A stretch of 64,000 nucleotides of DNA, taken from contig JAVZCZ010000001.1 in NCBI GenBank assembly GCA_038874135.1, forward strand, positions 751,219 through 815,218, in the 5' to 3' direction. Below the pieces are notes generated by a model. The model searched no databases. It worked only from the letters and a program-made list of their open reading frames with translations, and was not told where the DNA came from. Both the position numbers and the translations under genes were made by a program. Of the stretch, positions 3,001 to 30,159 are shown in pieces (positions within the stretch are counted from its first letter, which is position 1; each line of letters begins with the position of its first letter). The DNA is from Candidatus Woesearchaeota archaeon (GTDB taxonomy: Archaea > Nanobdellota > Nanobdellia > Woesearchaeales > 0-14-0-80-44-23).

Positions 3001-3222
3001 GACTACCAAGAAGCCCTTGAACTTTATGATAAGATCTCCAAGGCATACTCACTGCTCCCTACAGAGTTCAAGTATGCAGTGTTCTCTGAATGTCTTGAGC
3101 TTCTAAACATTCTTGAAAGGGCAAGAAAAAACCAGAACAACTCTGAAAATCAAGCAGTAACCTTCAAAAAGAAAAAAAAGAGGTGCAGGTCAAAATCACA
3201 CGCCAAGGCGAGAAGGGCATAA
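1..3222 (+). CDS. Large glycoprotein-like surface protein with its N-terminus off-window. It has PKD-like and carboxypeptidase-regulatory-like Ig-fold modules, a C-terminal TM anchor and a helical cytoplasmic tail.
   Basis: ORF track gives 22..3222. The same frame is stop-free back to nt 1, so the true start lies upstream. 'YLWDFNNDN...GRYLVTLKVND' is PKD-like. 'ITVLNRLGEPLAGANITLGNTSAITNSSG' is CarboxypepD_reg-like. Module ends such as 'YNLTISCSDAAGNSAYT' recur. A hydrophobic stretch LAIQIVILVVLLTIYLVYTL lies near the C-terminus. N-x-S/T sequons are very dense. Confidence 0.75.
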   Translation, partial: CSYSSNYLEVQCSDEQAYGNASTYFYIFELPSVNTYEPNDSAIINSSSFQFEYEILPESSAYLVKNCALILDGTSCNSTDLPHNGTNSISCPFSEGSHTWKVLCTLIGSGQETIESQERGFFADYSPPNINLINPNQPAYNSDVPIEFNITDSASSSFNCTISGIPAPFNLSSLVSYSSKLNLPVGKYNLTISCSDAAGNSAYTWQEFERINLSVSTDKKYYIPMENVFITLNAPPSQTNISVSKGNFTLSKTTTPPYPIVYIFTSSNEPGDYLVQAFTTYNNITFTANTSFSVNITRNLTLSISANTTTAEPGVRILFYSNVSGNLTPVTYLWDFNNDNLPESSLPNTEYSFSQPGRYLVTLKVNDSYSSASASINITVLSRANLSITVLNRLGEPLAGANITLGNTSAITNSSGAAVMQNLLQGTYPINVTATNYNSYFNTVDISSNKNITIYLQELTEEPEILITEPTDGATITSLPITIRFKANLSYPTNCTLYKNEQQSWWEQLSQMAVTNNTENTLSVANLTDGQVLLRIVCTDVFGNSGTQQISLNISTLPKEPQYPELDQAEEELYTKQEYYNSIGPAQLEAAQLLGIPDMLSDAQNRLTLARRDLSDLSYSKKSPEEKEARKSEIISDAVSRINAIPDSIQVLSSYEQIHYPTQQELEKVAAPFISANSLKIDQRTFLRANSPLIELITINTKAFSIVLNYNGESREVSVIKHSVQLSQQLNESAISNLMLILNIPKQIADSAAGITFMDRYGQKVVKDDPIFSLPVTSEIVYQINKSIDANSASEISLLLVSKSASVSIPGISGLAVSQTRYSIWPFNLIGGKIGSSLAIQIVILVVLLTIYLVYTLQPEIISRSADALGNHIKNLRPRSENRMKQIVHAEKSIPTTLQNNLASMPQQQTYSPIQQQVVPIGPGMQHSYIAYRMQRALQLAEQNNYEEASAAYYELKFLYNTLSSHEKSLLYPQLLNLGHKLNISYIRQLVSEAKLKVNSDYQEALELYDKISKAYSLLPTEFKYAVFSECLELLNILERARKNQNNSENQAVTFKKKKKRCRSKSHAKARRA

Positions 3223-5564
3223 TTTGTGCTCTGCTTTTAGGAATTGTAACTATAATCTTAGGTAGTTATGCCTGCGCTTTGGAATTTTCACCATCTTCAA
3301 TTAACGAAGTGCTTTCTATTAACAAGTTTGTTCAGAAAAACATAACTTTGAAGAATGAACTCTCCTATCCGGTAAGGATTGCTCTGGTGCCCTCTTCTAA
3401 CATTAGCGATTTATTAGACATCACTCCAAATTCTATTGAAATCGGGGCAAGAGAGTCAAAGAATGTTCTGGTTACAATATACGGAAATGTTGATCCTATA
3501 AAATTTATTAATCGCTCGTATTACATCTTTAATGGCTTCATAAAGCTTGAAGGAGCTAACGCTCAAATACCTACGGACTTGATGGTCACTAATGGAACAA
3601 TAAACCTGCCCAGCAGCATGGTGCTTTCAGCATCGGCAGGTAAGGATTATTTCACTAAATCAGAAAATCTCTCTTTTATAATTGTTGTAACGAATCTTAT
3701 GACAGGCTCAAAACCAAATGTTACTCTTTTCTATTATTTCCTAATTGATAAAAACTCAGAAATTCCCGTTGGGAACGATTCCTTCATAATTACTACTTCA
3801 AAATCAGTTGTAAAGGAATTCATACCAATGTCTTCAATACCTGATGGCACCTATACTTTCAGGGTTGTAATGTCTTATGCAGATAAGAAGAGTGTTGCTG
3901 ATGTGCCCTTCAGGATATCAACCCCATTTATATTCAGAACATTCTTAGGTATAGCTGTATGGCAGTATATACTCGGAGTGATTGCCTTAATAATAATTGG
4001 CTTGTTAGTATACTGGCGAAGGAAGCGTGTTTTGGCTTCTCGTCGTTATGGTGTGAGTGTGGATTTGCGTAGTTTTCCTTCTTCTGGTAGGCTTGTGCGT
4101 TTGGGTAAGTTGGCGGAGTATGGGCGTGATTTTTGGTTTGATTTGGATGGTTTGACTACGCATTGTATTGTGGCTGGTGCTACTGGTGGTGGTAAGACTG
4201 TTGCTGCTCAGGTTTTGGTGGAGGAGGCTTTGAAGGCTGGTGTGGCTGTGGTTGTTTTTGATCCTACGGCTCAGTGGAGTGGTTTTTTGAGGCCTTGTTC
4301 TGATAAGGGTATGTTGTCTTTGTATTCGGGTTTTGGGTTGCGTCGTTCTGATGCTCGGGGTTTTCCGGGTAATGTGAGGCAGGTGTTGGATGCTCGTGAG
4401 GTTTTTGATGTTAGGCGTTTTATGCGTCCTGGTGAGATTGAGATTTTGAGTTTGAATAGGTTGAGGCCTGAGGAGATTGATGTTTTTGTGGCTAATACTG
4501 TTAGGAGCGTGTTTGATGCGGGTTTGGATGAGTGTCGTGAGTTGAGGTTGTTGTTGGTTTATGATGAGGTGCATAGGTTGTTGCCGCGTTTTGGCGGTTC
4601 TGGTGAGGGTTTTGTGCAGATTGAGAGGGCTTGTCGTGAGTTTAGGAAGTGGGGTGTTGGTGTTGTTTTGATTAGTCAGGTTTTGTCTGATTTTGTTGGT
4701 GAGATTAAGGCTAATATTAATACTGAGGTTCAGATGAGGACTCGTGATGAGGGCGATTTGGAGCGTATTCGTGTTAAGTATGGTGATGCTTATCTTAGGG
4801 GTCTTGTGAGGGCTAGTGTGGGTACTGGTATGTTTGAGAATCCCGGTTATAATGGTGGTCGTCCTTTTTTTGTTAGTTTTAGGCCTTTGTTGCATAGTGT
4901 GGTTCGTTTGTCTGATGCCGAGTTGGGTGAGTATAATAGGTTGAATGGGGTGTTGGATGATTTGGAGTTTTGGATTGGCGAGTTGGAGCGTTTGGGTGTG
5001 GACGTGTTTGATTTGAGGTTGGAGTTGAAGTTGGCTTGGGATAAGTTGAGGGTTGGGGGGTTTGGGATGGTGGATGTTTATGTTGAGGGTTTGAGGCCTC
5101 GCGTGTTGGGCGAGTTTGAGCGTTTGGGGAGGCCTGTTCCTAAGCGTGAGGTTAAACGCCTTTCAGATGAGGAGCTTGCAAAGCAGAGGAAGCTGGCTGA
5201 GCAGAGCCGTGCAGAGTTTATAAAAAAGATGGGCATTAAAGAGCAGCAGTCCAAGCAGGAGGAAAAGAAGGAAGAACACATCGTGCAGCCTTACACTTTT
5301 GATAATGGTGCAATGGTTTCGGAGCTTAAGGAGTTGAAAGACGCTATAGAACCTATGAGTGCTGACATCCTCAGAAGCGCGTTGAGTGGAAACAATAAGC
5401 TTTCTGATTGGATAAAGAATGAGCTTAAGAATGAGCAGCTTGCCTCTGAAATTGAGAAGGCGAAGACGAAAAAGGAGATTCTTGATGCAATAACTGCTGA
5501 ACTTGATAAAGCAGAAAAGAGCAGTGAGAAATCTGGAACTGATAAAGGCCAAAAGTCTAAGTAG
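3183..5564 (+). CDS. Membrane-anchored HerA/FtsK-superfamily (DUF87-like) P-loop ATPase, paralog 1. Order: signal-anchor, ~250-aa extracellular domain, TM, cytoplasmic ATPase, Lys/Glu-rich tail with a conserved C-terminal module.
   Basis: Walker A AGATGGGKT is at nt 4173-4199 and Walker B LLLVYDEVH at 4548-4574. 'REFRKWGVGVVLISQ' is a HerA/DUF87-type motif. The TM GVIALIIIGLLVYW is followed by RRKR (positive-inside). The track start is GTG 3183, which overlaps the upstream ORF by 40 nt, so the exact start is uncertain. Confidence 0.8.
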   Translation: MQVKITRQGEKGIICALLLGIVTIILGSYACALEFSPSSINEVLSINKFVQKNITLKNELSYPVRIALVPSSNISDLLDITPNSIEIGARESKNVLVTIYGNVDPIKFINRSYYIFNGFIKLEGANAQIPTDLMVTNGTINLPSSMVLSASAGKDYFTKSENLSFIIVVTNLMTGSKPNVTLFYYFLIDKNSEIPVGNDSFIITTSKSVVKEFIPMSSIPDGTYTFRVVMSYADKKSVADVPFRISTPFIFRTFLGIAVWQYILGVIALIIIGLLVYWRRKRVLASRRYGVSVDLRSFPSSGRLVRLGKLAEYGRDFWFDLDGLTTHCIVAGATGGGKTVAAQVLVEEALKAGVAVVVFDPTAQWSGFLRPCSDKGMLSLYSGFGLRRSDARGFPGNVRQVLDAREVFDVRRFMRPGEIEILSLNRLRPEEIDVFVANTVRSVFDAGLDECRELRLLLVYDEVHRLLPRFGGSGEGFVQIERACREFRKWGVGVVLISQVLSDFVGEIKANINTEVQMRTRDEGDLERIRVKYGDAYLRGLVRASVGTGMFENPGYNGGRPFFVSFRPLLHSVVRLSDAELGEYNRLNGVLDDLEFWIGELERLGVDVFDLRLELKLAWDKLRVGGFGMVDVYVEGLRPRVLGEFERLGRPVPKREVKRLSDEELAKQRKLAEQSRAEFIKKMGIKEQQSKQEEKKEEHIVQPYTFDNGAMVSELKELKDAIEPMSADILRSALSGNNKLSDWIKNELKNEQLASEIEKAKTKKEILDAITAELDKAEKSSEKSGTDKGQKSK
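4021..5176 (+). repeat. ATPase cassette copy 1. This 1156-bp block is identical to 8201-9356, and its coding strand is G+T-rich.
   Basis: Base-by-base reading matches 8201-9356 at an offset of 4180. The sense translation and the long antisense ORF translations (4005..4895 vs 8191..9075) are identical in the ORF track. Line 4081-4140 contains 6 A and 6 C out of 60 nt. Flanking line 3901-3960 contains 17 A and 13 C. Confidence 0.95.
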
Positions 5565-5674
5565 ATTTCTTATACCTTAACCAACAATGTGGTATTTATA
5601 AACTTAGATTACTTAGTATGCATTTATACACATACACTATTTGTGTCACATTTAAAAATTAGTATATAAAATGA

Positions 5675-5688
5675 AAATATTTATATAT
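5675..5688 (+). promoter_or_regulatory. Putative BRE/TATA promoter element AAATATTTATATAT upstream of the RHH-led surface operon.
   Basis: It lies in an AT-rich 175-bp intergenic region with a TTTATATA core ~65 nt upstream of ATG 5753. The identical 14-mer recurs at 27328-27341 upstream of another secreted-protein gene. Confidence 0.4.
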
Positions 5689-5752
5689 CAATATACATAT
5701 TTAGTATGAGTTTGTATTCAAAGACCTTGAAAAGGCTTTTTTGGGACCCGAA

Positions 5753-5941
5753 ATGCGCAGTACGCCTGAGAAGCATGGCTCAAAGAGAATAACCATAACC
5801 ATAAGCAAGGACCTTTTAGACTTCTTAGATTTAGCTGTGGAGAACAGGCTGTTCGCAAGCAGAAGTCATGCACTTGAAGTCTTAGTAAGGCGCAGGATGG
5901 AGTTTGAGAATGAAGCAAAGAATTACAATTACATTGGATAG
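5753..5941 (+). CDS. Ribbon-helix-helix (CopG/Arc-MetJ-like) DNA-binding protein 1.
   Basis: 'KRITITISKDLLDFLDLAVENRLFASRSHALEVLV' has the beta-strand plus two-helix RHH pattern. The ORF track begins at TTG 5741, and the first ATG is 5753. Confidence 0.7.
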   Translation: MRSTPEKHGSKRITITISKDLLDFLDLAVENRLFASRSHALEVLVRRRMEFENEAKNYNYIG

Positions 5942-6101
5942 TGAATGCCTGGCATGGGTTGATGAAAAGGTAAAGAATAGAAGCTTTGCTAATCGGAGCC
6001 ACGGCTTTGAATTTTTAATAGCGCGATTCAAGGAGCGCCAAGAACTTCAGAATCTTCTCAACTCGCGAAATTCAAAGGAGGAAGACTTAAAACATGAATA
6101 A
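5910..6101 (+). CDS. Ribbon-helix-helix (CopG-like) DNA-binding protein 2, a tandem paralog.
   Basis: 'QRITITLDSECLAWVDEKVKNRSFANRSHGFEFLI' is paralogous to the upstream RHH. The track start is TTG 5904 and the first ATG is 5910. It overlaps RHH1 by ~32 nt and overlaps the start of the 1180-aa gene by 8 nt. Confidence 0.7.
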   Translation: MKQRITITLDSECLAWVDEKVKNRSFANRSHGFEFLIARFKERQELQNLLNSRNSKEEDLKHE

Positions 6102-9100
6102 AAATCCTACCTTCAGGATACTGGAACGGGACAGGCAGCTGGAAAGGAGAAGACAGCAGCTGTACATCCTATTAGGCATCTTAGGAGTTTTACTAGCAGT
6201 TGGTGTTATACTTCTGATAAGAATGTTCATAGGATACGCAGTTCTGGAAAGCAGGGCTGGCACAATAACACAACTTAATATACAGCTCAGATACTCAACA
6301 CACATATGGGCTGGATTTTACGGATTGGCATTCCGCGTTCCCGGATACACTGAGCAGCAGTCTGCAGTTGCAGTCGGCGGCACAGTCTTCTTGCAGCACT
6401 TAGTATTTGACTGCTTAAAAACTACAGACGGCAACATTCCTGAGGTATATGCCAGTACTTCAAGAAACATTGACTGGAATTCACTCCAGCCAGCAACTCC
6501 AGACTTGATTGACAGCTACCTACAAGTAGATCCTTCAGATATAACCTCTGCTTCAAACACATTTACAGAAACAATGTCAATACTCTTAGGAGACAGAGAA
6601 ATCACAAATATTGCTGCAACGCACACCAAAAAGTTCGGAGTTCCGGACAGCACGGACTTTGATATAGGCTTCTTAAAAGATTCGTTGGGAAATCTCGTAT
6701 TTGTAACCCATGTAACTCCAACTTATACCAAAGGATTTAACAACCAAACTATAAACTACCAAATGCTCCTTCCAGTACAAGCAGGAACAGCTCCAGTATA
6801 CTACTTCTTCTCAGACCCATATGACGAGTGCCAAGCAGGGCTTGAAGCTCTCAAAAATGCTACCATATTCGGAAGAGCCATAGACAATGCAACAGGCCTT
6901 CCACTTGAAAATGTTACAGTTAATCTTCATACTGCTACAGTTCTTACCAACTCTACAGGAGACTATTACATAGCAATATTTAACGGCACCTACACCCTAG
7001 TAGCTTTCAAGCCGGGATATTACACCTTTGTTGCAACAAACATCACTCTCCCAGCTGACAATCTGTCTACACCTCAATCTGAAAATATTGTCGAATTTAA
7101 TATATCCCTCATTCCCAACCCTGGAAACCCAACTGGACTCGGAAACCTAACTGGCACTGTAACTGATAAAGACTTCGGAATACCCCTCTATAATGTAACA
7201 GTGTATGTAAACGGCAGAATCGCTAAGACAAACATTACAGGCCAATACCTACTTGAACTGCCAGCAGGAAATCATTCTCTTATAGCAATGAAGGAAAACT
7301 ACAGAACATACTACACTCCAAATGTAACTATACTGCCTGGAAACACCACTGAATTTAATTTCAGTATGGAATATGCAGAGCCAGAAATAAAAGAAACTCC
7401 TGGATATCCGCTAAATACCTTCGTTTCCAACCTACTCAAACAGGCAGTGCAGAGGCCTCAAATAATACTCACTCATAAGATTGATACAAAAGAGATATTT
7501 GAAACATTAAAAGTTGGCTCATATGTCCAGCGCTCATTCAATATAACGAGTTACAGGCCTGCCGAGTCCAAAGTTGAGTTTGAAGTCATAGGAAGTGCTG
7601 CACAGCTGGTAAAGGTTGACAAGAGCAGCTCAATAATACCTCCAAGGGGTGCAGAAAACTTCACCCTTACAATTCTAGCCAATGTGCCTCCAGGCATATA
7701 TACCGGAACATTCCTAATCAAAGGAGACCTTGAAGACAGAATCCCGATAAAGATAGTTGTTTATGAGAAGGATAGACTTCCAATAGAGGCTCTTCTCCTA
7801 GAAGTAGTGCCAATAAAAAAGATAATCAGCCCAGGAGAACTATTTGAATATAAGGTCAGCATGACAAACCTGCTGAGGGACACCCCATACAACATCACCC
7901 TTTCATACAATATCACCTCGCGCTCTTCAAATCTTACTATTCCCGTTGAAGAAGAGACGAGACTCTTGGAAACTCAGCTTTCCTACCTTAAGTATTACAA
8001 GCTTCCCAAAGACCTGCCAGAAGGAGAATACTTCCTTGAAACTAGAGCGGAATTCTTAGAACTATCAACAAACACAAAATCGCTATTCATAGTTAAGAAG
8101 CCAATTTACATGTATGCATTATTCGGAATACTTCCCCTCTGGCAGCTTTTCATAATAATAGTTTTCACCTCCCTCATGACCTTCGCAGGATTAATGTATC
8201 GGAAGCGTGTTTTGGCTTCTCGTCGTTATGGTGTGAGTGTGGATTTGCGTAGTTTTCCTTCTTCTGGTAGGCTTGTGCGTTTGGGTAAGTTGGCGGAGTA
8301 TGGGCGTGATTTTTGGTTTGATTTGGATGGTTTGACTACGCATTGTATTGTGGCTGGTGCTACTGGTGGTGGTAAGACTGTTGCTGCTCAGGTTTTGGTG
8401 GAGGAGGCTTTGAAGGCTGGTGTGGCTGTGGTTGTTTTTGATCCTACGGCTCAGTGGAGTGGTTTTTTGAGGCCTTGTTCTGATAAGGGTATGTTGTCTT
8501 TGTATTCGGGTTTTGGGTTGCGTCGTTCTGATGCTCGGGGTTTTCCGGGTAATGTGAGGCAGGTGTTGGATGCTCGTGAGGTTTTTGATGTTAGGCGTTT
8601 TATGCGTCCTGGTGAGATTGAGATTTTGAGTTTGAATAGGTTGAGGCCTGAGGAGATTGATGTTTTTGTGGCTAATACTGTTAGGAGCGTGTTTGATGCG
8701 GGTTTGGATGAGTGTCGTGAGTTGAGGTTGTTGTTGGTTTATGATGAGGTGCATAGGTTGTTGCCGCGTTTTGGCGGTTCTGGTGAGGGTTTTGTGCAGA
8801 TTGAGAGGGCTTGTCGTGAGTTTAGGAAGTGGGGTGTTGGTGTTGTTTTGATTAGTCAGGTTTTGTCTGATTTTGTTGGTGAGATTAAGGCTAATATTAA
8901 TACTGAGGTTCAGATGAGGACTCGTGATGAGGGCGATTTGGAGCGTATTCGTGTTAAGTATGGTGATGCTTATCTTAGGGGTCTTGTGAGGGCTAGTGTG
9001 GGTACTGGTATGTTTGAGAATCCCGGTTATAATGGTGGTCGTCCTTTTTTTGTTAGTTTTAGGCCTTTGTTGCATAGTGTGGTTCGTTTGTCTGATGCCG

Positions 9101-9636
9101 AGTTGGGTGAGTATAATAGGTTGAATGGGGTGTTGGATGATTTGGAGTTTTGGATTGGCGAGTTGGAGCGTTTGGGTGTGGACGTGTTTGATTTGAGGTT
9201 GGAGTTGAAGTTGGCTTGGGATAAGTTGAGGGTTGGGGGGTTTGGGATGGTGGATGTTTATGTTGAGGGTTTGAGGCCTCGCGTGTTGGGCGAGTTTGAG
9301 CGTTTGGGGAGGCCTGTTCCTAAGCGTGAGGTTAAACGCCTTTCAGATGAGGAGCTGCAGAAGGAAAAGGAGATTGCTATGCAGGAACATGAGAAAGCAA
9401 AACAGCAGGAAGCAGGACAAACTTCACAAAATTCAGATTCCAAGACAGAAACTTCCCAAATTCAAAACACAAAAGTTGAAGAGCAGCCCAGCCAAAATGA
9501 AAAGGCCGAGAACCAAGAGAATGCAAAATCCTCAAATGAAAATAAAATTAAAAGAGTAAGGGAGGGTAAAAAGCAGAGGATGAGGAAATCAGCAAGTTCG
9601 GAAAAAAATAATAAAAAAAGAGGTGCTAAAAAATGA
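6094..9636 (+). CDS. Membrane-anchored HerA/FtsK-superfamily ATPase, paralog 2. Order: N-terminal TM, ~650-aa extracellular region with CarboxypepD_reg-like and Ig-like modules, TM, the identical ATPase domain, acidic/basic low-complexity tail.
   Basis: N-terminal TM is LYILLGILGVLLAVGVILLI. 'GRAIDNATGLPLENVTVNL...GYYTF' and 'GTVTDKDFGIPLYNVTVYVNG...ENYRTY' are carboxypeptidase-regulatory-like. The second TM is LWQLFIIIVFTSLMTFAGLMY followed by RKR. The ATPase domain is identical to the one in 3183..5564. Confidence 0.8.
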   Translation: MNKNPTFRILERDRQLERRRQQLYILLGILGVLLAVGVILLIRMFIGYAVLESRAGTITQLNIQLRYSTHIWAGFYGLAFRVPGYTEQQSAVAVGGTVFLQHLVFDCLKTTDGNIPEVYASTSRNIDWNSLQPATPDLIDSYLQVDPSDITSASNTFTETMSILLGDREITNIAATHTKKFGVPDSTDFDIGFLKDSLGNLVFVTHVTPTYTKGFNNQTINYQMLLPVQAGTAPVYYFFSDPYDECQAGLEALKNATIFGRAIDNATGLPLENVTVNLHTATVLTNSTGDYYIAIFNGTYTLVAFKPGYYTFVATNITLPADNLSTPQSENIVEFNISLIPNPGNPTGLGNLTGTVTDKDFGIPLYNVTVYVNGRIAKTNITGQYLLELPAGNHSLIAMKENYRTYYTPNVTILPGNTTEFNFSMEYAEPEIKETPGYPLNTFVSNLLKQAVQRPQIILTHKIDTKEIFETLKVGSYVQRSFNITSYRPAESKVEFEVIGSAAQLVKVDKSSSIIPPRGAENFTLTILANVPPGIYTGTFLIKGDLEDRIPIKIVVYEKDRLPIEALLLEVVPIKKIISPGELFEYKVSMTNLLRDTPYNITLSYNITSRSSNLTIPVEEETRLLETQLSYLKYYKLPKDLPEGEYFLETRAEFLELSTNTKSLFIVKKPIYMYALFGILPLWQLFIIIVFTSLMTFAGLMYRKRVLASRRYGVSVDLRSFPSSGRLVRLGKLAEYGRDFWFDLDGLTTHCIVAGATGGGKTVAAQVLVEEALKAGVAVVVFDPTAQWSGFLRPCSDKGMLSLYSGFGLRRSDARGFPGNVRQVLDAREVFDVRRFMRPGEIEILSLNRLRPEEIDVFVANTVRSVFDAGLDECRELRLLLVYDEVHRLLPRFGGSGEGFVQIERACREFRKWGVGVVLISQVLSDFVGEIKANINTEVQMRTRDEGDLERIRVKYGDAYLRGLVRASVGTGMFENPGYNGGRPFFVSFRPLLHSVVRLSDAELGEYNRLNGVLDDLEFWIGELERLGVDVFDLRLELKLAWDKLRVGGFGMVDVYVEGLRPRVLGEFERLGRPVPKREVKRLSDEELQKEKEIAMQEHEKAKQQEAGQTSQNSDSKTETSQIQNTKVEEQPSQNEKAENQENAKSSNENKIKRVREGKKQRMRKSASSEKNNKKRGAKK
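8201..9356 (+). repeat. ATPase cassette copy 2, identical to 4021-5176.
   Basis: Evidence is the same as for copy 1. It is in the same codon phase in its host ORF. Identity ends at ...gatgaggagct, followed by g at 9357 versus t at 5177. Confidence 0.95.
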
Positions 9637-17600: not shown

Positions 17601-18652
17601 AACAATCTTATATTGAATTATATAACAACACACCTTATGCAGAAGCTACCTATAATTTATCTGCAGGAACTCATTACTGGAATGTTAGCTGCTGGGACTA
17701 TGTAAACCATACGGGCTTTAGCGAAACCTGGAACTTTACAGTTCCACTGCCAGACATCACAGTTTCAGCAATTGAATTCATTTATAATACCACAAACCCA
17801 GAAGAAGGCAAACAGCTGATGATAAATGCAACTGTAGAAAATTTAGGGAAGTCCAATGCAAACAATTTCTTAGTGCAATTCTTTGACGGAAATCCCGAAG
17901 ATGGGGGAATTCAGATTGGAAACAATATAACAATGAGTTTACAGCCGCTATCTGCTTCATACGCAATTATGAATTGGACTGCCTCCTTGGGAACTCACAA
18001 TATATTCGTGCTAGTAGATCCTCCAATAGCAACCAATGGAACGGTACAAGAAGAAAATGAGAGTAACAACATAGCTAATAAAACAATACTCATACAAAGT
18101 TGGCATTTCATCTACGGTAACCTTAGCGGAGAATTAGGACTTAGCAGCCAGCTCTATTCGCTGTTATTCCTCTGGAATGTTAGCGACGCCAACAATAGTA
18201 ATATATTTGCAGTTGACTCTGACAGCAATATTGATTGGGGAAGTCTAAAACCATTAGGATTGGATGTGAATAATCAAGCATCTCCCTACGACTTTTCAGT
18301 TCTAGACCAAAAACTAGGTATGTCAAATTATGAAGATTCAATAAACTCAACTTACACCGAGGGAGAATCTCCCAAAATGACAGAAACATTTACAATATAC
18401 GGAAAGCAGATAGAAAATGTTCCGGTAGCATATTCAATTAACAGCTCCAATTTTAAAACAGGAATACTGTGGGACACTTCCGATGGGAACACATACTTTA
18501 ACGGAACTCAGGATGTAGTTTTTGTAACTAAAACCAATATGAACGCACAGGGCAGTTTTGATCAGACAGACTACGAAATGCGCATCCCATCTAACTTGAA
18601 AAATTATATTGGCTCAAATCCAACAGTAGCATTATACTTAGAGATAAGATGA
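11612..18652 (+). CDS. Giant (2346 aa) secreted/surface protein with 14 Ig-like modules, a CARDB-like domain and a conserved C-terminal domain.
   Basis: The start makes an ATGA overlap with the upstream gene. The N-terminal hydrophobic signal is FFKLIILGFIIVVGLL. There are 14 modules of ~95 aa, each ending in a W-x-[VI]-x-C-x-D-x-AGN-like motif (e.g. YWNVTCRDLAGNINTSE). 'PDITVSAIEF...NLGKSNANNFLVQFFDG...ENESNN' is CARDB-like. N-x-S/T sequons are extremely dense. Confidence 0.85.
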   Translation: MNSSKFFKLIILGFIIVVGLLSQSKADSIQAVYGNTQLILTDKPQYTLGESVKINILIPTQLLSGMNVEIDTPASRYQLLDSNLSEVYFTPQQEGNYTIKISSAAGNLISSTSFLVLRKSEVEIPSSDSTSPKLSAKNWKGNYQKILRQEYLPANKKLSIEFSELSIQKIDFYNVSNPNGELKIEDVPLSYVENFSGRAARSFAIDPTLLEFTYAEIYFTATANELWKCREYDFSTRSCAGRYVKIMDTIPGRQYILHLTKEDPLYTEVWNNITCTCQNTGPNNGWAYCEVFCPVNIPIPTDALDGFIQILGYNVTITTSYPAGGYITPNSGMHYGFFDRDQLKSNGNESLIGYVAYDGPGTTTQLIYNTSMAPSGAYAFNRANCPTWTSGYCTWYVFLNSTAKSSKVKRPVTVNITLNSINWTWNYTTPAPSNITINLTSPADNTALGFRNVNFSYIPISSSPVSNCSLFINITGSWNAVATSYSIQNNSVNSINYTLSNDGEYLWNIRCYAGDISSFALYNRTLIVDTAPPSVTLLSPNNNSFSNTSIISFIYNVSDNFNIANCSLILDNVLVATSYAVTKYVPQNITYALSNGVHNWSITCFDFAGNFNISESRIINISAVPTIWDRRWYETSTSDYTSTANISLANLRDSTENSISVSVPVSTSYTLVDAISPYIGSNGAFVPKGTNVSFSGEFSTSPNAKGVISWFLYQTEGSTKNLLCNYGNGGSLGAPISSTTTASCTIQNDTLMLPTNRLQLIIIYYNNFKNLVSVTHYWDGTRLSFVEFSNFTTLGTLSVDLSYPDTDITVGQNELFNMSCTVNCSGGSCLNTLVYAQYNTSSTAFTNIGSSGNLILNTGETNPHSLGNINQSYTTTFLIKGNLASTNNIRCVAVSNYSNATGQIIRRVVVGDTTPPTVSLGNPANFSWLKSKTVTIYYTPSDNSGITNCSIYLNDILNYTLNSVPNGIEQNFTFHNLSDGLYNWTVACTDNSALTTRAAEKWFYIDTQNPSVELHQPENFIVLGSSLVLFNFTAYDEMAFNLSCNLTADNIIRISGINSLNSTPTIVNYTLSMGQHYWNVTCRDLAGNINTSETRTFNITNTPPEVTLISPPNNYWDRIGNITFIFNATDTGLISNCSLIINGQLNQTKNSTFLTNGINNFTILNMESGVYLWEVNCTDEGNLSTIAGPFTLNVDKSVPSVQLVFPSNYYNSSASSIVLQFITTDAHSANLSCNLTIDGILNSTDIIAQNNSLVSQPITFYDGIHNWSVSCSDLAGNLNSTNTWYFNISEKPSVSLSSPAPNAWTNGNVTFTFTASDNDGLYNCSLLINGAVYQTKNSSQLTNGGQNNFTVTNLLEGINQQWTVICFDLGIYKNFYSPSTRIFHVDKTPPAITLNYPADSAQIKQKNVSFNFSASDNFASNLYCNLSINGQINTSEIAVQSGSSVIVNVSGFPNGLYYWNVSCRDYAYNVNWSETNSFNVSVPPEVFLEYPLEGQWDNSENVTFYYLVTSNAELQSCSLIINGQLNQTDNSPVSSAYNNFTIFLMPEGYYTWMVNCTDSYWLTGSSNLRNLTIDRQAPWIVLNSPSNSSIVDSNYVTFNWTAFDMMADNISCDLYVDDYLRESEIYSKNGTPTTRTYIYSDGTYYWNVSCRDPAYNINWSQTYNFTVEAPPNVTLISPSNYNWSTAYSITFAYLPQDPIGIRQCTLYFDGSPNQTDYDIEANQLNYFTINPISEGVHTWSVNCTDSDWNTYMPPAFTLYIDRTPPTIVIESPVNLSVFSIPDVTFNFTAIDMLSDNISCKITINGNLNRTITVQNDTPYNFTIVKMSDNIYYWNVSCSDLAGNANASNTMQFTVSAIPSIIPISPANLSWSEVSQITFYFNATDNDGLSNCTLLINGVANQTKSSGLINGGINNITSTLTEGEYDWSIACTDSGIFYNLNLSAPQKIFVDLNSPLIVLYAPLSGSITENNSPVLNFTASDTMYPIMYCNITLDGKLKQSYIELYNNTPYAEATYNLSAGTHYWNVSCWDYVNHTGFSETWNFTVPLPDITVSAIEFIYNTTNPEEGKQLMINATVENLGKSNANNFLVQFFDGNPEDGGIQIGNNITMSLQPLSASYAIMNWTASLGTHNIFVLVDPPIATNGTVQEENESNNIANKTILIQSWHFIYGNLSGELGLSSQLYSLLFLWNVSDANNSNIFAVDSDSNIDWGSLKPLGLDVNNQASPYDFSVLDQKLGMSNYEDSINSTYTEGESPKMTETFTIYGKQIENVPVAYSINSSNFKTGILWDTSDGNTYFNGTQDVVFVTKTNMNAQGSFDQTDYEMRIPSNLKNYIGSNPTVALYLEIR

Positions 18653-21600
18653 AACGCAGCATAACTTTTGGAATAATTTTTCTACTTTTAATAGCATTAT
18701 CTCTAAAAATTTCCAGTGCGAGCTGTCCGGAAATAATACTTTCATCCAACACCACTATAAAAGATGTAGATATAAAAATAAAAGTTTCAGGGCAGACACA
18801 AGAGTCAGAATTAGTGATAAGAACGCCTTCAGGTCCGTATCGTCTTTTAGGAGATATTCCTTCCCTTACAAGCTTTACTCCAAAAGATGTAGGTAACTAC
18901 TCTGTTGAAGTTTGGCAGGACAAAGTGCTGTGTGACATAAAAAATTTTACCGCACTACCTCACAATAACTCGACACTATTCCTTCCGCCAATACTTTCCA
19001 CAGATAAAAAAGAATACCACTTAGGTGAAGCTGTTAGAATTTCACTCTCACCAGAATATTACGGTTACTCAATTGAAGGTTTAAATTTAAAACTGTTGAC
19101 AGGACAGCAATCCTACTCTCTCTTAGGGGAAATATCTGAGGATATAGAATTCCGACCTGTTTTTGAGGGTAACTATACAATTCTCTTATTAGACTCCATT
19201 GGAAATACTCTTGCTTCTGAAAGCTTTTCCGTCTACGCTTTGAATAGTTACTTTGTTAATAACTTATCTATTAAAAAACGATTTTCGGACAAATTTGAAT
19301 ACAACATCAGCACTAATTCAGAAGACATGATTGTTGAATTCTCAAACTCCTTCATTAAAAGACTAAACCTAAAGAAACTATCTTCAAGTAATCTGGCGAT
19401 AGTTAGGATTTCAGAGTTACTGCCGGAAGAGAGGAGCCGTCTGAATATTCCTACAATTGGAGGTGAAATTAAAGAATCTTTTGAATTAGATCCTTCCGCC
19501 CTAAACTTTTCAGAAGGTGAACTAACAATTGTCCCTTCAGGAAATGAGCTGTGGAAGTGCACTGATTGGAATTATGATGCTCAGTATTGTGTCGGAAGTT
19601 GGATCAAGCAGCAGAATCTTGTTCCCGGTGTTGAAAATGTAATTAAGTTTAACCTTTCCGATCCAGGATATGCTATTGTTGCAACTGCTAACATAACTTC
19701 AATAGCAGCAGCAACCCTCTCTGAAAACTCTTTTGTAGTAGCATATTGCGATGATACAAATGATAGAACTGCTTTCAAGGTTTTCTGGGCTAATGGGAGT
19801 GTAAGAACTAATGAGGTGATAGTTGATTCAACTACTGGAAATTGTGGTTACACCTCAGTTTCTGTTTCAGCACTTACCAACAACTCTTTTGTTATCGGAT
19901 GGATTGATACTGCCAGCAGTTATGCCAGCTTCGCTGTTTATGATGCCTCTGGAAATGTTATTACTCCAAGGGTGGATGTGGATACTACTGCTGGTACTTC
20001 CCGTTCTGTGAGTGTGTCTGCTTTTAATAGTTCTGCTTTTGTTTTTGGTTGGTATGATCAGGCTTCTGCTTATGCTTCTTTTAGGACTTTTAGTTCTTCT
20101 GGTGTGGCTATTTCTTCTGTTGTTAATGTGGATACTACTGCTGGTACTTGTAATGCTGTTTCTGTTTCTGCGGTTAATTCTTCTGCTTTTGTTTTTGGCT
20201 GGTATGATCAGGCTTCTTCTGATATGACTTTTCGTACTTATACTTCTTCTGGCGTTGCGATTTCTGCCGTGACTGATGTGAATACTAAGGTGGGTACTGG
20301 TTCTTTTTCTGTTTCTGTTGCTGCTTATAATTCTAGTGCTTTTGTTATTGTTTGGTATGATCAGAGGCTGGGTTATGTTAGTTTTCGTCAGTATTCTGTT
20401 GCTGGTGTTCAGATTGGGAGTCAGGTTAATCCGGATACTGCTGTTGGGACTACTGCTTCTGGTGTTTTTGTTTCTTCTGTTGGTGTGAATTCTAGTGTTT
20501 TTGCTGTGGGTTGGAATGATTTGACTACTGATGTTGTTAGTTCTGTGAGGACTTATAGTGGTGCTGGTGCTGCTGTTTCTTCTGAGGTGGTTGTGCAGGC
20601 TAATGCTTTGAAGTATAATGCTCTTGCCGGCTACTACCCTGCTACAGGCATAGGTTTCTGCAATGGAAACTTTGTAGCAATAATTGTTAATACTTCTTCG
20701 CAGGCATTTTTTAAAGCATACATGCCTAATGGAAGCGAATGGGACGGAAACTGTCCTGATGTTATACCGCCTCAAGTTGTTCTGAATAGTCCTCAGCAAG
20801 CCGCTGTCTTCTATAGTGATACTGTGGATTTTAATTTTACAGTAACCGACAATGTAGATTTAGTAATTCCAAACTGTACCCTTTGGATAAACACTTCATC
20901 AACATTCTCTCCAAACATAACAATTTACAATATAACCTCTAATAAGATGAACAACATAACTCTATCTCAAATTCCAGACAACAAATACATTTGGAATGTC
21001 AGGTGTTATGACAATGCAGGCAACTCAGCATTTGCTTCTTCAAATTTTTCATTATTTATCAACAAGAATCCACCTCAAATCTTGAACCCCCTCCTGAATG
21101 AAAGTACAGTAAATCAGAGCCATTCAGTAAAGTTTAATGTCTCAATAACCGATTCATATGGTATAGACTCTGCATATATAACTATGATGTACCCAAACGG
21201 TTCATCAAATAATTATTATCTTAATAGAAGTGGGAATGAATTTTACTTCATAATTAATAATACAATCCAGATAGGAACATATTCTGTGATATATGTGTGG
21301 GCTAATGATACCCTCGGACAAAACTCTTCTCTAACCCTTTCAGATCTCCAGTTTAATGTCACGCCTTCACCACCTGCTCAATTCAACCTTTTAAGTCCCC
21401 CGAATGCAACAGAGTCAACAAACCTGCGACCAAACTTGACTTGGGAGACATCTTACGATGAGACATTCCTTAATTATACTATTCAGATTTCTCAGGATGA
21501 AAACTTCGCAACAGTACTCTTTACATATTATAATCCGGGTGTTTATAATACTTCAAGAGTGCTGGATTATGCCCTAGAAGCGAATAAGAAATATTACTGG

Positions 21601-24600
21601 CAAGTTATTGCATACGACACCTTTGGCAATTATAAATATTCAACAAATTACTTCTCATACATAACTGACACTTTGGCACCTTCCATCGTGCTAAATATGC
21701 CGGGAAATCTTTCATTCATAAATTCTACACAAGTCAACTTTACATTTACACCTTCAGATGCTAACACGATATCAAGATGTACTCTCTACCTAAATGTCAC
21801 AGGAGCATTCCTCCCTAACACAAGTATAACTCAAGTTGTTAAAGACACTCCAAATTTAATACAAGCTGAAATTAAAGATGAGGGCGCCCACTTGTGGAAT
21901 ATCCTGTGTAATGATAGCGCAGGAAATTCTGCGTTTGCTCCTCAGAACTTCACCTTTATTTCAGATCTTAACCCGCCCTCAATACAACTATTAAGTCCTC
22001 CCAACGGCAGTACATACAACATTTCCAATTTTGTAAATTTCACTATAAATGCATCTGATAGGATATCCGCAGTATACCGCTGCACACTCATAATAAATGG
22101 ACAGCCCGTTCTTACTTCTTATTCTGTGCAGGACGGAGTGCCATACACATTTCAGTATTTCTTGCTGAATGGAAATTACTCCTGGCAGGCAGAATGTTAC
22201 GACTTAAACGGTCATTCAAACCTTTCTTATTCCTACAACATTTCAGTTTTAGTTATTGATTCAGTACCTCCAATCGTAACCTTAACTAGCCCCGCACAGG
22301 ACCAATACCTTTCCAGTAAAACAGTACTATTCAATTATACTCCGCAAGACGCTACTGGAATAAAGAACTGCACCCTATTTATTGATGGCAATGAAAACGA
22401 AACTGACTTTTCTGTTAGGAACTTGGAACCAAACTACTTCTTATTAGAATACTTAGAGGACGGGGTTCATAACTGGACTGTGCTCTGCTTTGACAATAGC
22501 AGCCAGCAGAACAGCTACGCACCCACCCCTGTAAGGTTCTCAATAGATACAACTCCGCCATCAGTAATTCTTATCTCTCCAGAAGATGGAGTTCTTACTA
22601 ATAATTCTCTAGTCACCTTTGTATACGCACCATCAGATGCAAATCTTGAAAATTGCTCCCTCTACACTAATTCTTCTAGCGAGTGGATGATGGAATCAAC
22701 AGACTTCTACCCAATTAATAATCAGCAGAATGTTTTTCAAAAATCAGTTGCGGATGGAGTTCTCGTTTGGAATGTTGTTTGTTATGATAAGGGCGGGCTC
22801 TCCAGCTTTGCTGACTTTAACCGAACATTGAATGTTGATACAACTCCGCCGCGATACGCCAATATAACTCTGATCCCGACAAGCCCAACTGAATATTCAC
22901 CTTATGGGGAGTATTACTTTAATATAACATGGATTGATGATTTTAATTTGTCATCTGTATATTTTGAGAGCAACTTTTCAGGAACCTTTGAGAATGAGAG
23001 TCCCAACCACTTTGAAAACATTTACTATGTTCACAAGACAGGTCTTAACTCAGGAACATACCAGATTAGGTGGTACGCTACTGATTCGGCAAAAAATCAG
23101 AACGAAACCCCGGCAATTCAGTATGATATAACTAAAGCAGAGCCTAACCTTACTTTAAAAATAAACAATTATTCTTATAATTTGACTGTTGAGGAAGATA
23201 GCATAGTTAATATCTCAGCAGAGCTCTTAGAGCCACCCGGAGCATACCTCTCTATTTATATTAACAATAATCTCATTACTAACGGAACTTCTCCTATTTA
23301 TACTACTTACAACTTTACAGAGCCTGGATCTTATAATGTTACTGCGAGCTTTGAAGGAAGCCAAAACTACCTTTCAGCATTCAGAACAATAATTGTAAAT
23401 GTCTCAGACACTACACCCCCAATTATAGTTCCCATCTTCCCGCAGAATAACTCATTCATAGGGGAAAATCACATTGTATTTTCTTACAATGTAACTGACA
23501 GCAGCCAAATTGCCAACTGTTCTTTATTCATAAATAGAACATTAAACCAGAGCAATACCAGCATACAGAATGGAATAAACTACTTTGAAGTTGACTTTCA
23601 AGATGGCAACTACTCCTGGCACCTCTCCTGTTATGACGAGTTTTCAAACTATGCTGAAAGCCCGGAGATATACTTCACTTCAATAAGGTCAGATAAAATA
23701 ATTGCTTCAGCACATCCTCAACAGCCGCAGTACCAAAAGGGTGAAACGGCAATACTTATAGGAAATACTACGAGCATCTTCGGAACACCATTAGATACAA
23801 ATATTTATGCTAATGTAATAAGAGGCAATACTACGATAGAATGGTGGAACACTTCATTCAAATACAGAAGGCCTATATTTATAAATAACTCAATGAACGC
23901 TTCAACATACTTGCAGGCGCTAATCAACATTTCAAACCTTAGCGCTTCAATTTCTAACTGTTCTGAACTCAGAATTGTAATGAACAACTCTTTTGAGCAC
24001 ACCCTAATCCCCTCAGAAGTACTCTTAGAAGAGGGAAATGCTTCGTGCCTGCTAAGATTTAATGCGAATGCTTCTGCACTCGCCACGAATGAGAACAACT
24101 ACTATGTATATTACGGAAACTCAGGAGCAGGAGCCCAGCAGCAGCTTCCAGAACTTGCAGGCATATCAGTACAGCGTAAGTCTGTTGTGGGAACTACAAC
24201 TTCAATCACTGATACGATGAGTGAGGTGAATACTTCAAGAGCGTTCCTGCTTTTCAGCGCCAATGTCGCCAGCTCAACTCCTGCAGTTTGGGAAATAACG
24301 GGAAGAATATTATCCTCAACGCAGGTAGTGTTTGAAAGATACTCGGGAACCACATCTGCAAATATATCCTGGCAGGTTATAGAAGGCTCAGAGATTAATG
24401 TGCAGAGGGGAACCGCATCATTTGGAGCTACACAATCAAATACTACAATACTTATAGATAGTGTTAATCTAAACGAGTCTTTCATAATAATAACCGGAAG
24501 GACCAGCAGCACCACAGCAGGGAATGCAAACATGGGCTTCTTTAGGGCAATGTTCCTTAACTCTACTGCAATTTATATTGAAAGGGCTACAACTGGAAGC

Positions 24601-26487: not shown

Positions 26488-26655
26488 GTTCAAATGTTTC
26501 TTTACATTTAGTTATCTAGTTTATCTATTAATATATTTAATATAATAAATTAATTATTTTAATTTATTAAGTTAAATATTTTTTTAATTAATTTATTATT
26601 TTAATAACTTAATCAGCAAGTTTTAAAACCCCTATTAACTTATTAAAAATCTAAG

Positions 26656-27150
26656 ATGCCAATTTTAAAGAAAGAGCAACCAACTGCATTTCAGGAGCCA
26701 CCTAAAGAAGTGCCGCCCTTGGCGCGGGAGATAATTGAAAGGAGCAAGATAGCTGGGCATACCGAACTTCCTCAGGAACTTCCACGAATTGCCGAATTGG
26801 TTGAAAGCCCAAAACAGGAATATCCAATACCACAAGAGTCAGCTCACGCTTCCGACGACATAAAAGAAGTGAAAGAACGCCTTGAACGAATAGAATCCTT
26901 GCTCAGAACTGCTGTTCCGGGAAAATATCTCATACTGAGAGATGGGAAAGTACTTAAGAACATTGCCGATTTGAGAAGCGCTTTAGCCACGATGAGTTCG
27001 GAAACATTCAATTTGCATGTCAACTTTGAGAGGAATGACTTTGCAAATTGGGTTAGGAATGTCTTCTTGGAAAAAGAGCTTGCTGATAAGTTGGATGGAG
27101 CCACGAGCAGGGCTCAGATGATTAGAATTTTAAACGAATATTTTGACTGA
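26656..27150 (+). CDS. Small cytoplasmic protein carrying a conserved ~70-aa C-terminal module shared with two membrane proteins of the locus.
   Basis: 'LILRDGKVLKNIADLRSAL..SETFNLHVNFERNDFANWVRNVF' aligns with the C-termini of the 844-aa ORF (35335..37869) and the 793-aa ATPase ORF. It has no signal peptide. Confidence 0.6.
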   Translation: MPILKKEQPTAFQEPPKEVPPLAREIIERSKIAGHTELPQELPRIAELVESPKQEYPIPQESAHASDDIKEVKERLERIESLLRTAVPGKYLILRDGKVLKNIADLRSALATMSSETFNLHVNFERNDFANWVRNVFLEKELADKLDGATSRAQMIRILNEYFD

Positions 27151-27327
27151 GAAATTCTTAAGTTTTCTTCTCGTGAAGACAAAGTTTATTTTTAAACGAA
27201 ATCCCATTTGAACATTTTTAAGTTATATAATTCTTTATTTTTAATAAAAAAGAATTTTAATCCGTTATAATTAAAAAATAAGCATTTTAATGGTTTTTTT
27301 TATAGATTTTTTATGATTTTTTTTAGA

Positions 27328-27341
27328 AATATTTATATATT
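27328..27341 (+). promoter_or_regulatory. Putative BRE/TATA element AAATATTTATATAT, the same 14-mer as at 5675-5688.
   Basis: It lies in a 300-bp AT-rich intergenic region upstream of 27454 and has a TTTATATA core. Confidence 0.35.
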
Positions 27342-27378
27342 AGTATACCTTTTTGTAGTTTAAATTAATAAAAAAGTT

Positions 27379-27413
27379 ATTGGTATACTGCAATGATTAA
27401 AAAGTATACCAAT
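27379..27413. promoter_or_regulatory. Perfect 10-bp inverted repeat ATTGGTATAC-N15-GTATACCAAT, a candidate operator.
   Basis: The arms at 27379-27388 and 27404-27413 are exact reverse complements. A third GTATAC core lies at ~27343-27348. The repeat sits between the TATA-like element and the ATG at 27454. Confidence 0.4.
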
Positions 27414-27453
27414 AGCTTATTTACAAGCTTAAAGCAAGCAAGAGGGTGTCAAC

Positions 27454-28224: not shown

Positions 28225-28294
28225 GGGAAAGCCATACTTGCTTTCTCTTATTAATTTTCACCTCCAGGCGAGGCGAGCAAGCGAGTGATGAAAA

Positions 28295-29187: not shown

Positions 29188-29194
29188 GCCAGAG

Positions 29195-30112: not shown

Positions 30113-30159
30113 ACTTTTTTTATAAAACTTTTTAAATATATTCTCATTTTAAATGGCTA

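Follow-up and report, generated by a model that had tools for sequence, protein, structure and literature searches.

Exact coding repeats with an intense sense-strand G/T skew in a Woesearchaeota archaeon: a probable archaeal member of the GRINS class of repeats

How can long repeats persist as exact copies inside otherwise different genes of an archaeon? This question is raised by a stretch of 64,000 nucleotides from a Candidatus Woesearchaeota genome (GCA_038874135.1, contig JAVZCZ010000001.1, positions 751,219 to 815,218 of the forward strand; this whole stretch is hereafter called the window), in which a direct repeat, R1, forms the ATPase-coding cassette of two neighboring genes (gene 1 and gene 2), while a second direct repeat, R2, forms the propeller-coding part of two genes for surface or secreted proteins (Table 1). 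An earlier reading of the sequence (the original prediction) had proposed that the exact identity of the copies reflects either very recent copying or ongoing conversion, and that recombination between them could serve as a mechanism of surface variation; it overlooked the defining property of these repeats, which is an intense G/T skew of the sense strand. Our analyses suggest that the repeats are probably an archaeal case of GRINS, i.e., paralogous coding stretches that are kept near-identical by recurrent gene conversion and whose sense strand has been recoded to consist nearly entirely of G and T, as far as the protein permits.

Both pairs proved to be exact, with 0 mismatches over 1156 bp (R1) and 656 bp (R2), and their spacers are 3024 and 9925 bp long, as the original prediction had it. 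Each repeat lies in frame and in matching codon phase in both of its host genes, and ungapped identity immediately beyond the R1 borders falls to approx. 25%, i.e., the random level. Exact repeats this long cannot originate by chance within 64 kb; a chance or low-complexity repeat was also ruled out as the identity is exact over 656 to 1156 bp and as well-conserved domains are encoded. The window contains no inverted repeats of at least 100 bp. A transposable element or miniature inverted-repeat transposable element was rejected, as no transposase was found among the large open reading frames (ORFs) scanned, no duplicated target was found in the flanks, and GT richness of one strand excludes inverted termini.

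Base composition sets the four repeat copies apart. The sense strand of R1 has base fractions of.148 A,.099 C,.371 G and.381 T, and that of R2 has.14 A,.145 C,.265 G and.45 T, as compared to.295 A,.213 C,.19 G and.302 T for the whole window (G+C approx. 40%). In a scan with 150-nt windows, stretches of at least 300 bp with G+T > 0.66 were found in the 64-kb window solely at the four repeat copies, on the + strand. With skews measured in 150-nt windows and 30-nt steps (the windowing used for GRINS; PMC8256042), windows with both GC and TA skews > 0.25 were confined to these copies and their edges. Mean GC and TA skews were 0.60 and 0.44 for R1 and 0.28 and 0.54 for R2, against background means of 0.17 and 0.14; the correlation between the two skews was positive in the elements plus their edges (r = +0.48) and negative in the rest of the window (r = -0.22). 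At third codon positions, A and C together make up 4% of the bases in R1 (A.01, C.03) and 2% in R2 (A 0, C.02, T.79), as compared to 50 to 62% in those parts of the host genes (heads and tails) that lie outside the repeats. Codons in the repeat accordingly end nearly always in T or G (e.g., TTG for 43 of 47 Leu, GAG for 31 of 31 Glu, TTT for 23 of 23 Phe and ATT for 10 of 10 Ile), and the skew switches at the repeat borders, inside single ORFs. A replication-strand skew was rejected as an explanation, since the + strand has a slightly negative background GC skew (median -0.10), whereas that of the elements is positive.

The skew extends to the encoded amino acids. Compared to 17 normally coded homologues, the R1 cassette contains more Arg, Val, Gly and Leu and less Lys, Ile, Gln, Thr, Asn and Met; enriched residues include Gly (11.2 vs. 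7.1%), Val (11.7 vs. 6.8%), Trp (1.3 vs. 0.8%) and Cys (1.0 vs. 0.6%), depleted ones Thr (2.3 vs. 4.6%), His (0.8 vs. 1.7%) and Gln (1.6 vs. 4.1%), and Pro is unchanged (3.4 vs. 3.2%). Among 31 lineage-specific replacements in otherwise conserved columns, 14 require nothing but A>G or C>T changes, and 1 requires changes in the opposite direction. The cassette keeps the residue at every invariant column of an 18-sequence alignment that includes the cassette itself, and the ORFs are intact. Selection at the codon level for T- or G-ending codons (e.g., for translation speed or mRNA properties), independent of recombination, could explain why the effect is strongest at third codon positions; this explanation is nevertheless very improbable, as the skew ends at conversion borders inside single ORFs and domains (for R2, within the propeller), as amino-acid content is reshaped, and as the skew is absent from 78 of 80 homologues and strictly co-occurs with homogenization of the copies, as described below.

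Two other segments of unusual composition were observed nearby. A third strongly G+T-rich segment (0.70 to 0.75) lies upstream of the window (L002 206-1123 and L001 1-1108, where position 6819 of L001 corresponds to position 1 of the window) and codes for the N-terminal half, with Cys-rich repeats, of a secreted protein of 590 aa, the remainder of the gene being normal. Conversely, window positions 9353 to 10378, which comprise the Lys/Gln/Asn-rich tail of gene 2 and the next ORF of 274 aa, are strongly A+C-rich (G+T approx. 0.33 to 0.35) and adjoin the G+T-rich cassette; this stretch is low-complexity coding sequence and not a repeat.

A survey of 80 homologous loci from species-representative genomes (best match 74% amino-acid identity; the window's own species is not among them) identified the skew in the two closest loci only, i.e., L004 (from Tengchong by sample naming) and L005 (from Kamchatka by record title). 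Each shows 74% amino-acid identity to the window, and G+T is 0.78 in their cassettes vs. 0.44 to 0.49 in the flanks. A compositional habit of the whole ATPase family was thus rejected, as the other 78 of the 80 loci are normal (G+T 0.37 to 0.58). A scan of metagenomes, with a pattern specific for T/G-ending coding of a conserved motif, yielded seven further stretches on six contigs (33 to 46% G+C), the cassettes of which are all skewed and 80 to 91% identical to that of the window. On L092, which represents an L005-like lineage, the propeller repeats of the second giant protein (13545-14285) have a G+T content of 0.74 and show approx. 73% identity to R2; conservation across lineages thus holds for the R2 skew as well.

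Comparisons among these lineages indicate that the copies evolve in concert. L005 belongs to a different species, and has the same layout as the window (head 1, cassette and tail 1, then small ORFs, then head 2, cassette and tail 2) with its own exact pair of 1240 bp, the borders of which lie 30 to 40 bp outside those of the window's pair. The spacers of the two loci are orthologous (66 to 84% identical in the few alignable pieces), while the cassettes are approx. 80% identical; as spacer and heads are orthologous between lineages whose cassettes are this divergent, the duplication predates the split. In an identity matrix, the copies cluster by genome or lineage, with 97 to 100% identity within a genome and 79 to 91% between lineages. 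Two metagenome lineages, L091/92 and L093/96, carry copies that can be distinguished (approx. 97% identity), and therefore the tandem order of cassette, spacer, cassette and tail is unambiguous and real there.

For R2, the two host genes are paralogous over a wider region, with 63% identity over the whole 529-column alignment, including a 218-aa core at 100%, so that R2 is a tract of 100% identity in an older paralogous region that is clearly diverged on either side. If each lineage had undergone just one recent duplication and no further conversion, exact identity by itself would be accounted for, as it is compatible with a very young event; we regard this explanation as extremely unlikely, given that it is contradicted by the layout common to diverged lineages, by single-nucleotide polymorphisms (SNPs) found in both copies, and by the R2 tract inside an old, diverged paralogy. 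Because the tandem layout is common to diverged lineages (79 to 85% identity of the cassette), yet the copies are 97 to 100% alike in each skewed one, the comparisons support ongoing non-reciprocal copying as the explanation of the identity, rather than one recent duplication; of the two causes offered in the original prediction, ongoing conversion is thus the one favored.

The comparison of strain-level variants that had been proposed as a check points in the same direction. We compared the window, itself a strain-level variant, with the Candidatus Woesearchaeota metagenome-assembled genomes (MAGs) GCA_038731275.1, GCA_038872315.1, GCA_038871545.1 and GCA_038873055.1, and found that 5 of 6 strain SNPs in the repeats are present in both copies. 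In GCA_038731275.1, R1 shows two T>G changes, each in both copies (4538/8718 and 4697/8877), and R2 shows four differing sites, three in both copies and one copy-specific (20561). R2 of GCA_038872315.1 has one differing site, in both copies, and the R1 copies of GCA_038873055.1 have two mutual differences near the 3' border. Outside the repeats, SNPs between the window and GCA_038731275.1 are clustered at 2984-2995 (4 in 12 bp) and 19233-19328 (8 in 96 bp), against a background of approx. 0.25%; these clusters may be short conversion tracts between Ig-like repeats of giant surface proteins.

Skew and homogenization occur together. In the five skewed lineages, copies are 97 to 100% identical (one of these lineages, L095, is known only from the 100-nt terminal overlap of a loop contig), whereas the two nearby paralogous ATPase genes of five unskewed lineages show 68 to 85% nucleotide identity; homogenization was thus found in 5 of 5 skewed and 0 of 5 unskewed lineages (P = 0.008; Fisher's exact test). 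Overall, the alignments show concerted evolution of the copies within genomes against normal divergence of the adjoining heads, tails and spacer, and the skew coincides both with the converted tract and, across lineages, with homogenization.

According to the original prediction, a deletion between the R1 copies would leave a single chimeric gene. L004 has exactly such a gene, consisting of head 1, cassette and tail 2, and no spacer: in a blastn alignment to L005, the match covers head 1 and the cassette and passes directly on to tail 2 and the genes downstream, and L004 lacks tail 1, the small ORFs, head 2 and one of the cassette copies. The L004 contig has no gaps. A head-2 homologue from the L004 MAG was not found in a protein search, which is weak evidence as an unbinned contig would be invisible there. 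As L005 shares the tandem layout with the lineage of the window, which is the more distant one, parsimony makes the L004 layout the derived one, and we thus interpret it as a putative deletion by crossover between repeats.

The further suggestion that the repeats act in surface variation was not supported. Direct repeats that flank a head-encoding segment, and the existence of the single-gene layout of the L004 type, would be in line with a programmed switch by which heads are exchanged for surface or phase variation. However, what is converted in R1 is a conserved cytoplasmic part, there are only two genes, both full-length, the heads are stable orthologues, deletion would be irreversible, and no silent cassettes, invertase or other site-specific recombinase, or reverse transcriptase were found among the large ORFs scanned; such a switch is therefore very unlikely. 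The repeats also differ from cassette systems for antigenic variation of the vls or pilS type, as both copies are identical and lie in complete ORFs with their own starts, and as a cytoplasmic ATPase is converted. The vls cassettes of Lyme-disease Borrelia resemble the repeats in being gene-conversion substrates with a strong coding-strand GC skew (approx. 0.5, far above the genome background and thought to be important for conversion; PMC11499132). On the other hand, vls consists of one expression site and a promoterless silent array and diversifies a surface antigen, while here two complete genes are homogenized. Moreover, G runs are clustered in vls, its G+C content is raised and AT skew is nearly absent from it, while the repeats have a TA skew of 0.44 to 0.54; a G-quadruplex (G4) or G-run model such as that for vls was rejected, as no G4 motif was found and G runs are rarer in the repeats than in shuffled sequence.

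Diversity-generating retroelements are common in DPANN archaea, and share with R1 and R2 a repeat pair in or near surface-protein genes. Their repeats are approx. 0.1 kb long, however, as compared to 0.7 to 1.2 kb here, and R1 and R2 are not located at a C-terminal lectin fold. Retro-copying of this or another kind was rejected, as no reverse-transcriptase domain was found among the large ORFs scanned and as the copies show 0 mismatches and no adenine-specific differences.

The substitutions between lineages provide information on how the skew is maintained. Among the 247 differences between the cassettes of the window and L005, 121 are exchanges between G and T, and at third positions these account for 89 of 103. 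Polarized by outgroups, 169 changes included 52 T>G, 37 G>T, 4 C>T and 7 A>G, and per-site fluxes were nearly balanced (0.023 from A or C to G or T, 0.016 in reverse). Judged by these changes, the elements are kept in equilibrium, with silent sites switching back and forth between G and T, the two keto bases, and with the skew retained over at least 20% sequence divergence. Given such balanced switching, a single burst of deamination is insufficient, and A and C must be continually filtered out of the sense strand by biased repair, biased conversion or selection. Pure ongoing deamination was rejected: it fits the composition and the amino-acid replacements (14 vs. 1), but C>T and A>G account for just 11 of the 169 changes; it is retained as a possible historical input.

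Silent divergence of the cassettes is low in some comparisons. Four-fold degenerate sites show 0 to 2% divergence among the cassettes of L004, L005 and L092, as compared to 49 to 62% for the adjoining heads, while window and L090 differ by 26% in the cassette and by 53 to 68% in the heads. The cassettes of L004, L005, L091/L092 and L094 (e.g., L005 5954-7193) are 98 to 100% identical although they come from four datasets, i.e., Tengchong (by sample naming), Kamchatka (by record title) and two Joint Genome Institute metagenomes. Per pair, 9 to 14 amino-acid differences were counted, far more than silent ones. The near-zero four-fold divergence in three lineages, which stem from different datasets and two of which represent separate geographic regions, suggests recent exchange of cassettes between lineages, although low silent divergence is in part expected if only changes between G and T survive. 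Tail 2 of L005 differs from that of L004 and L092 by 15 to 18% at four-fold sites (n = 33 sites), well under the 49 to 62% of the heads; the exchanged tract may run downstream of the cassette into tail 2, albeit on small numbers.

These divergences, together with the near-identity of cassettes across datasets, would also fit a horizontally moving cassette, made elsewhere or in one lineage and spreading among related species by homologous replacement of both paralogues, with conversion within genomes being secondary. This alternative appears unlikely. No viral contig match was found in IMG/VR, with a peptide-pattern scan that detects close relatives only, and no transposase, integrase or reverse transcriptase was found nearby among the large ORFs scanned; terminal inverted repeats are impossible in such a one-sided sequence; and each lineage group has its own cassette sequence. 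Movement of this kind would moreover complement conversion, as copying into both paralogues is still required.

Several points weigh against recurrent conversion of recoded repeats as we have described it. Some concern the assemblies, most of which are de Bruijn assemblies of short reads. By sample naming, the related MAGs belong to a series from geothermal springs at Tengchong and apparently derive from Illumina data, for which SPAdes -meta was run with k-mers of up to 127 (PMC11094006), and contigs break or overlap 122 to 130 bp into the repeats. The identity of repeat interiors, and the SNPs that co-vary there, could in part represent a collapsed graph node traversed twice, and copy-specific SNPs occur only within approx. 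150 bp of the repeat borders. With identical copies, the order A-R-B-R-C can not be distinguished from A-R-C plus a circle (B-R), and loop contigs are present (L088 and L095); where the copies are identical, the linear tandem order would thus be established only via the lineages whose copies differ. L004 could be an assembly path that skipped the loop. Further points concern the process itself: C>T and A>G changes are few and fluxes are nearly balanced, so that simple ongoing deamination is not demonstrated as a mechanism of the skew, G4 motifs are absent and G runs scarce, and the much lower synonymous divergence of the cassette than of its flanks points to exchange between lineages as well as within genomes.

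Taken to its limit, the assembly problem would mean that the pairs are an artefact, with truly one copy plus a circular molecule of spacer and cassette, or with two non-identical copies, a reading consistent with the k-mer length, the contig ends inside the repeats, the loop contigs and an artefactual 127-nt duplication in L001. We consider it quite improbable, as the tandem order is unambiguous in L091/92 and L093/96 at a copy difference of approx. 3%, as assemblies from other projects show a matching layout (L005 and the B-segment contigs L097/L098), as copy-specific SNPs near the borders show that there are two physical copies, and as the skew is inherited across species and is not a product of assembly. 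The sequence between the R2 copies, segment B', is also represented by a separate Logan contig of 9985 bp (L089; 100% identical to the window) and by L088, and contigs with segment B only, with cassette ends at both limits, are present in other MAGs. The loop contigs L088 (10,708 bp, i.e., a period of 10,581 + 127) and L095 (6,212 bp, i.e., 6,112 + 100) each comprise one repeat period plus the k-mer overlap and could be mistaken for small circles. An exact duplication of 127 nt (L001 657-783 = 884-1010) is present in one MAG and absent from another, and L084 contains a scaffold join with a 127-nt overlap at approx. 21778-21879; both look like k = 127 scaffolding artefacts in public assemblies.

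Recurrent conversion thus remains the probable cause of identity, and we asked which described class of repeats R1 and R2 resemble. GRINS were defined as duplicated regions of >500 bp that are >80% identical to another region and show mean absolute GC and TA skews >0.15 in 150-nt windows; their skews are correlated, abrupt and strongest at third codon positions, their proteins are intact, and they are linked to gene conversion (PMC8256042). Where the skew is positive, Gly, Val, Cys and Trp are increased and Pro, Thr, His and Gln decreased; copies are more alike within than between related clusters, and single-copy skewed regions are also known (PMC8256042). R1 and R2 agree with this description in length (1156 and 656 bp), in identity (100% in the window, 97 to 100% in four related lineages), in both mean skews exceeding 0.15, in the correlation of the skews inside and not outside the elements, in third-position skew with intact coding, in abrupt borders, in the amino-acid shift except for Pro, and, as far as short-read assemblies allow, in paralogues being closer to each other than to orthologues. 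The repeats are therefore best filed as an archaeal member of GRINS.

They also differ from the GRINS described to date. The host is a DPANN archaeon of the Woesearchaeota rather than Streptomyces, another bacterium or a eukaryote, and the genes concerned encode a HerA-type ATPase and surface propellers rather than polyketide synthases (PKS), nonribosomal peptide synthetases (NRPS) or transposases. Copies are 100% identical here as compared to 75 to 98% in GRINS; the silent-site skew is near-absolute and so far always of the sense-strand G+T type, whereas both polarities occur in PKS genes; and one cassette group is far younger than its flanks across species, whereas GRINS of PKS genes were reported to be more divergent between clusters. 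Hosts reported comprise many bacterial phyla as well as amoebal and choanoflagellate PKS genes (PMC8256042). Archaea are not mentioned in that paper (the text string 'archae' does not occur in it), the later papers that we found using the term all deal with PKS or NRPS, and the term is also absent from a 2026 paper on nucleotide skews in archaea.

Concerted evolution of tandem paralogues by gene conversion is itself a familiar process, with identical copies, diverged orthologues, sharp borders that vary among lineages, and occasional deletions by unequal crossover. Ordinary conversion tracts keep the base composition of the genome, however, while the tract described here is radically different and strand-asymmetric. 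Recurrent non-reciprocal homologous recombination copies sequence between the paralogues, with tract borders at the limits of homology, and we propose that a strand-asymmetric bias acting on single-stranded or heteroduplex recombination intermediates would remove A and C from the sense strand, which is the cause of the skew that we prefer. Low-complexity GT-rich DNA may pair more easily, so that conversion and skew would reinforce each other, and an occasional crossover between copies would lead to loss of the spacer and one copy. RecA-family proteins reportedly prefer GT-rich single strands (Tracy and Kowalczykowski), with which this scheme would agree. A 'life cycle' has been proposed for GRINS, in a 2021 paper that left the origin of the skew unexplained (PMC8256042), and our self-reinforcing scheme would fit that proposal.

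More tentatively, GRINS could be a general property of recombination of the RecA/RadA type, present also in minimal-genome archaea, with the cassette behaving as a semi-autonomous, conversion-driven allele that overwrites paralogues and sweeps between species, its G/T strand giving an advantage in pairing or repair. The sweeps would account for cassettes of 98 to 100% identity in lineages whose adjoining sequence has reached saturation at silent sites. We consider this general reading doubtful; if it were true, the small set of repair and recombination genes in DPANN archaea would sharply narrow the search for the mechanism of GRINS. As an archaeal case, the repeats would add archaea to the bacteria and two eukaryotic groups in which GRINS have been reported, in a host from geothermal springs with a small genome (gene 2 lies on a 910-kb contig) and with a silent-site skew close to the theoretical maximum, and they would argue against explanations bound to Streptomyces (linear chromosomes, AdnAB, RuvA variants). 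They also offer natural replicates, i.e., several lineages with copies of 97 to 100% identity, controls that share the layout without the skew, and a gene that is the putative product of a deletion. For metagenomics they are a warning, as such elements break short-read assemblies, can yield chimeric paths, and distort estimates of divergence and of the ratio of non-synonymous to synonymous substitutions (dN/dS).

Table 1. Positions of the skewed repeats, their host genes and the intervening segments in the window
Feature	Positions	Strand	Description
R1a	4021..5176	+	HerA/FtsK-type ATPase domain of gene 1; skewed copy, exact match to R1b
R1b	8201..9356	+	Second cassette copy, inside gene 2
R2a	19969..20624	+	Approx. 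four beta-propeller-like blades within the 2612-aa surface protein; skewed copy, exact match to R2b
R2b	30550..31205	+	Second R2 copy, inside the 752-aa propeller protein
Gene 1 (793 aa)	3183..5564	+	ORF, translation, Pfam
Gene 2 (1180 aa)	6094..9636	+	ORF, translation, Pfam
Small ribbon-helix-helix (RHH)-like ORF 1	5741..5941	+	Spacer between R1 copies
Small RHH-like ORF 2	5904..6101	+	Overlaps ORF 1 and the start of gene 2
Segment B between R1 copies	5177..8200		3024 bp; gene 1 tail (5177-5564), two small ORFs, gene 2 head (6094-8200)
2612-aa surface protein, host of R2a	18649..26487	+	Ig repeats; Pfam Big_7, CARDB, Big_13
752-aa secreted protein, host of R2b	30160..32418	+	Predicted N-terminal seven-bladed propeller-like fold
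Segment B' between R2 copies	20625..30549		9925 bp

Gene 1 encodes, in order, a signal or transmembrane segment, an extracellular head of approx. 270 aa, a transmembrane segment, the ATPase cassette, a Lys/Glu-rich linker and a small C-terminal domain, and an identical copy of its protein is found in two public MAGs. Gene 2 encodes a large extracellular head with CarboxypepD_reg domains, a transmembrane segment, the same ATPase cassette and a different tail. R1 codes from the first residue past the membrane-spanning segment through the end of the P-loop ATPase domain. Its designation as an ATPase was confirmed, as the protein carries a P-loop and the DUF87/HerA signature of the HerA/FtsK superfamily, with Pfam scores of 37.8 bits for DUF87 (cut-off 23.2) and 37.4 bits for HerA_C (cut-off 22); similarity to solved HerA structures is weak (PDB 4d2i, E = 1.6e-7), and scores with the NCBIfam equivalog models for HerA, CedD and TraD are all far under their cut-offs, so that no subfamily can be assigned. 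The ATPase family is widespread in DPANN archaea, the best database homologues being just approx. 60% identical. Two membrane proteins with different extracellular heads would thus keep one identical HerA-type hexameric-ATPase module, a hint that the two may need compatible ATPase rings.

R2 encodes approx. four of seven blades of approx. 50 residues each. The propeller designation was borne out by a single-sequence AlphaFold model of the 752-aa protein (pTM 0.73, i.e., moderate confidence), which is all-beta with approx. 28 strands and for which the best Foldseek matches are seven-bladed propellers (prolyl-oligopeptidase propellers and WD40). Two surface proteins would accordingly share the same propeller blades.

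The predicted contents of segment B were confirmed, i.e., the gene 1 tail, two small ORFs and the gene 2 head; the RHH-type matches of the small ORFs are weak, with Pfam values below threshold (RHH_1, E = 0.024 for the first and E = 0.067 for the second). With NCBIfam, the first ORF matches the N-terminal part of NikR (E = 2e-6) and the second matches MazE-type and NikR models (E = 2e-5 to 6e-5). A virus or plasmid origin of the locus was rejected, as the IMG/VR pattern scan, which detects close relatives only, was empty and as PADLOC reported just generic similarity to HerA and mad8; no deaminase was found among the large window ORFs scanned. The remainder of the window is ordinary chromosome, with genes for a topoisomerase, a ribosomal protein of the L16p/L10e family, an IF-2-type translation GTPase, a NOG1-type GTPase and an rRNA adenine dimethylase.

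The locus is built of modules. Upstream of gene 1 (window 22-3222 plus L001 6147-10040) there are two small RHH-like ORFs, in front of a paralogous module, and a head protein of 1172 aa that lacks the ATPase; a further such pair of ORFs is located in front of gene 2. Weak, sub-threshold matches to DUF5752 were observed for an 844-aa protein (35335-37869, - strand) and for the gene 1 tail (5178-5564), which shows an additional weak match to DUF7118; a small C-terminal domain may thus be common to these DPANN proteins.

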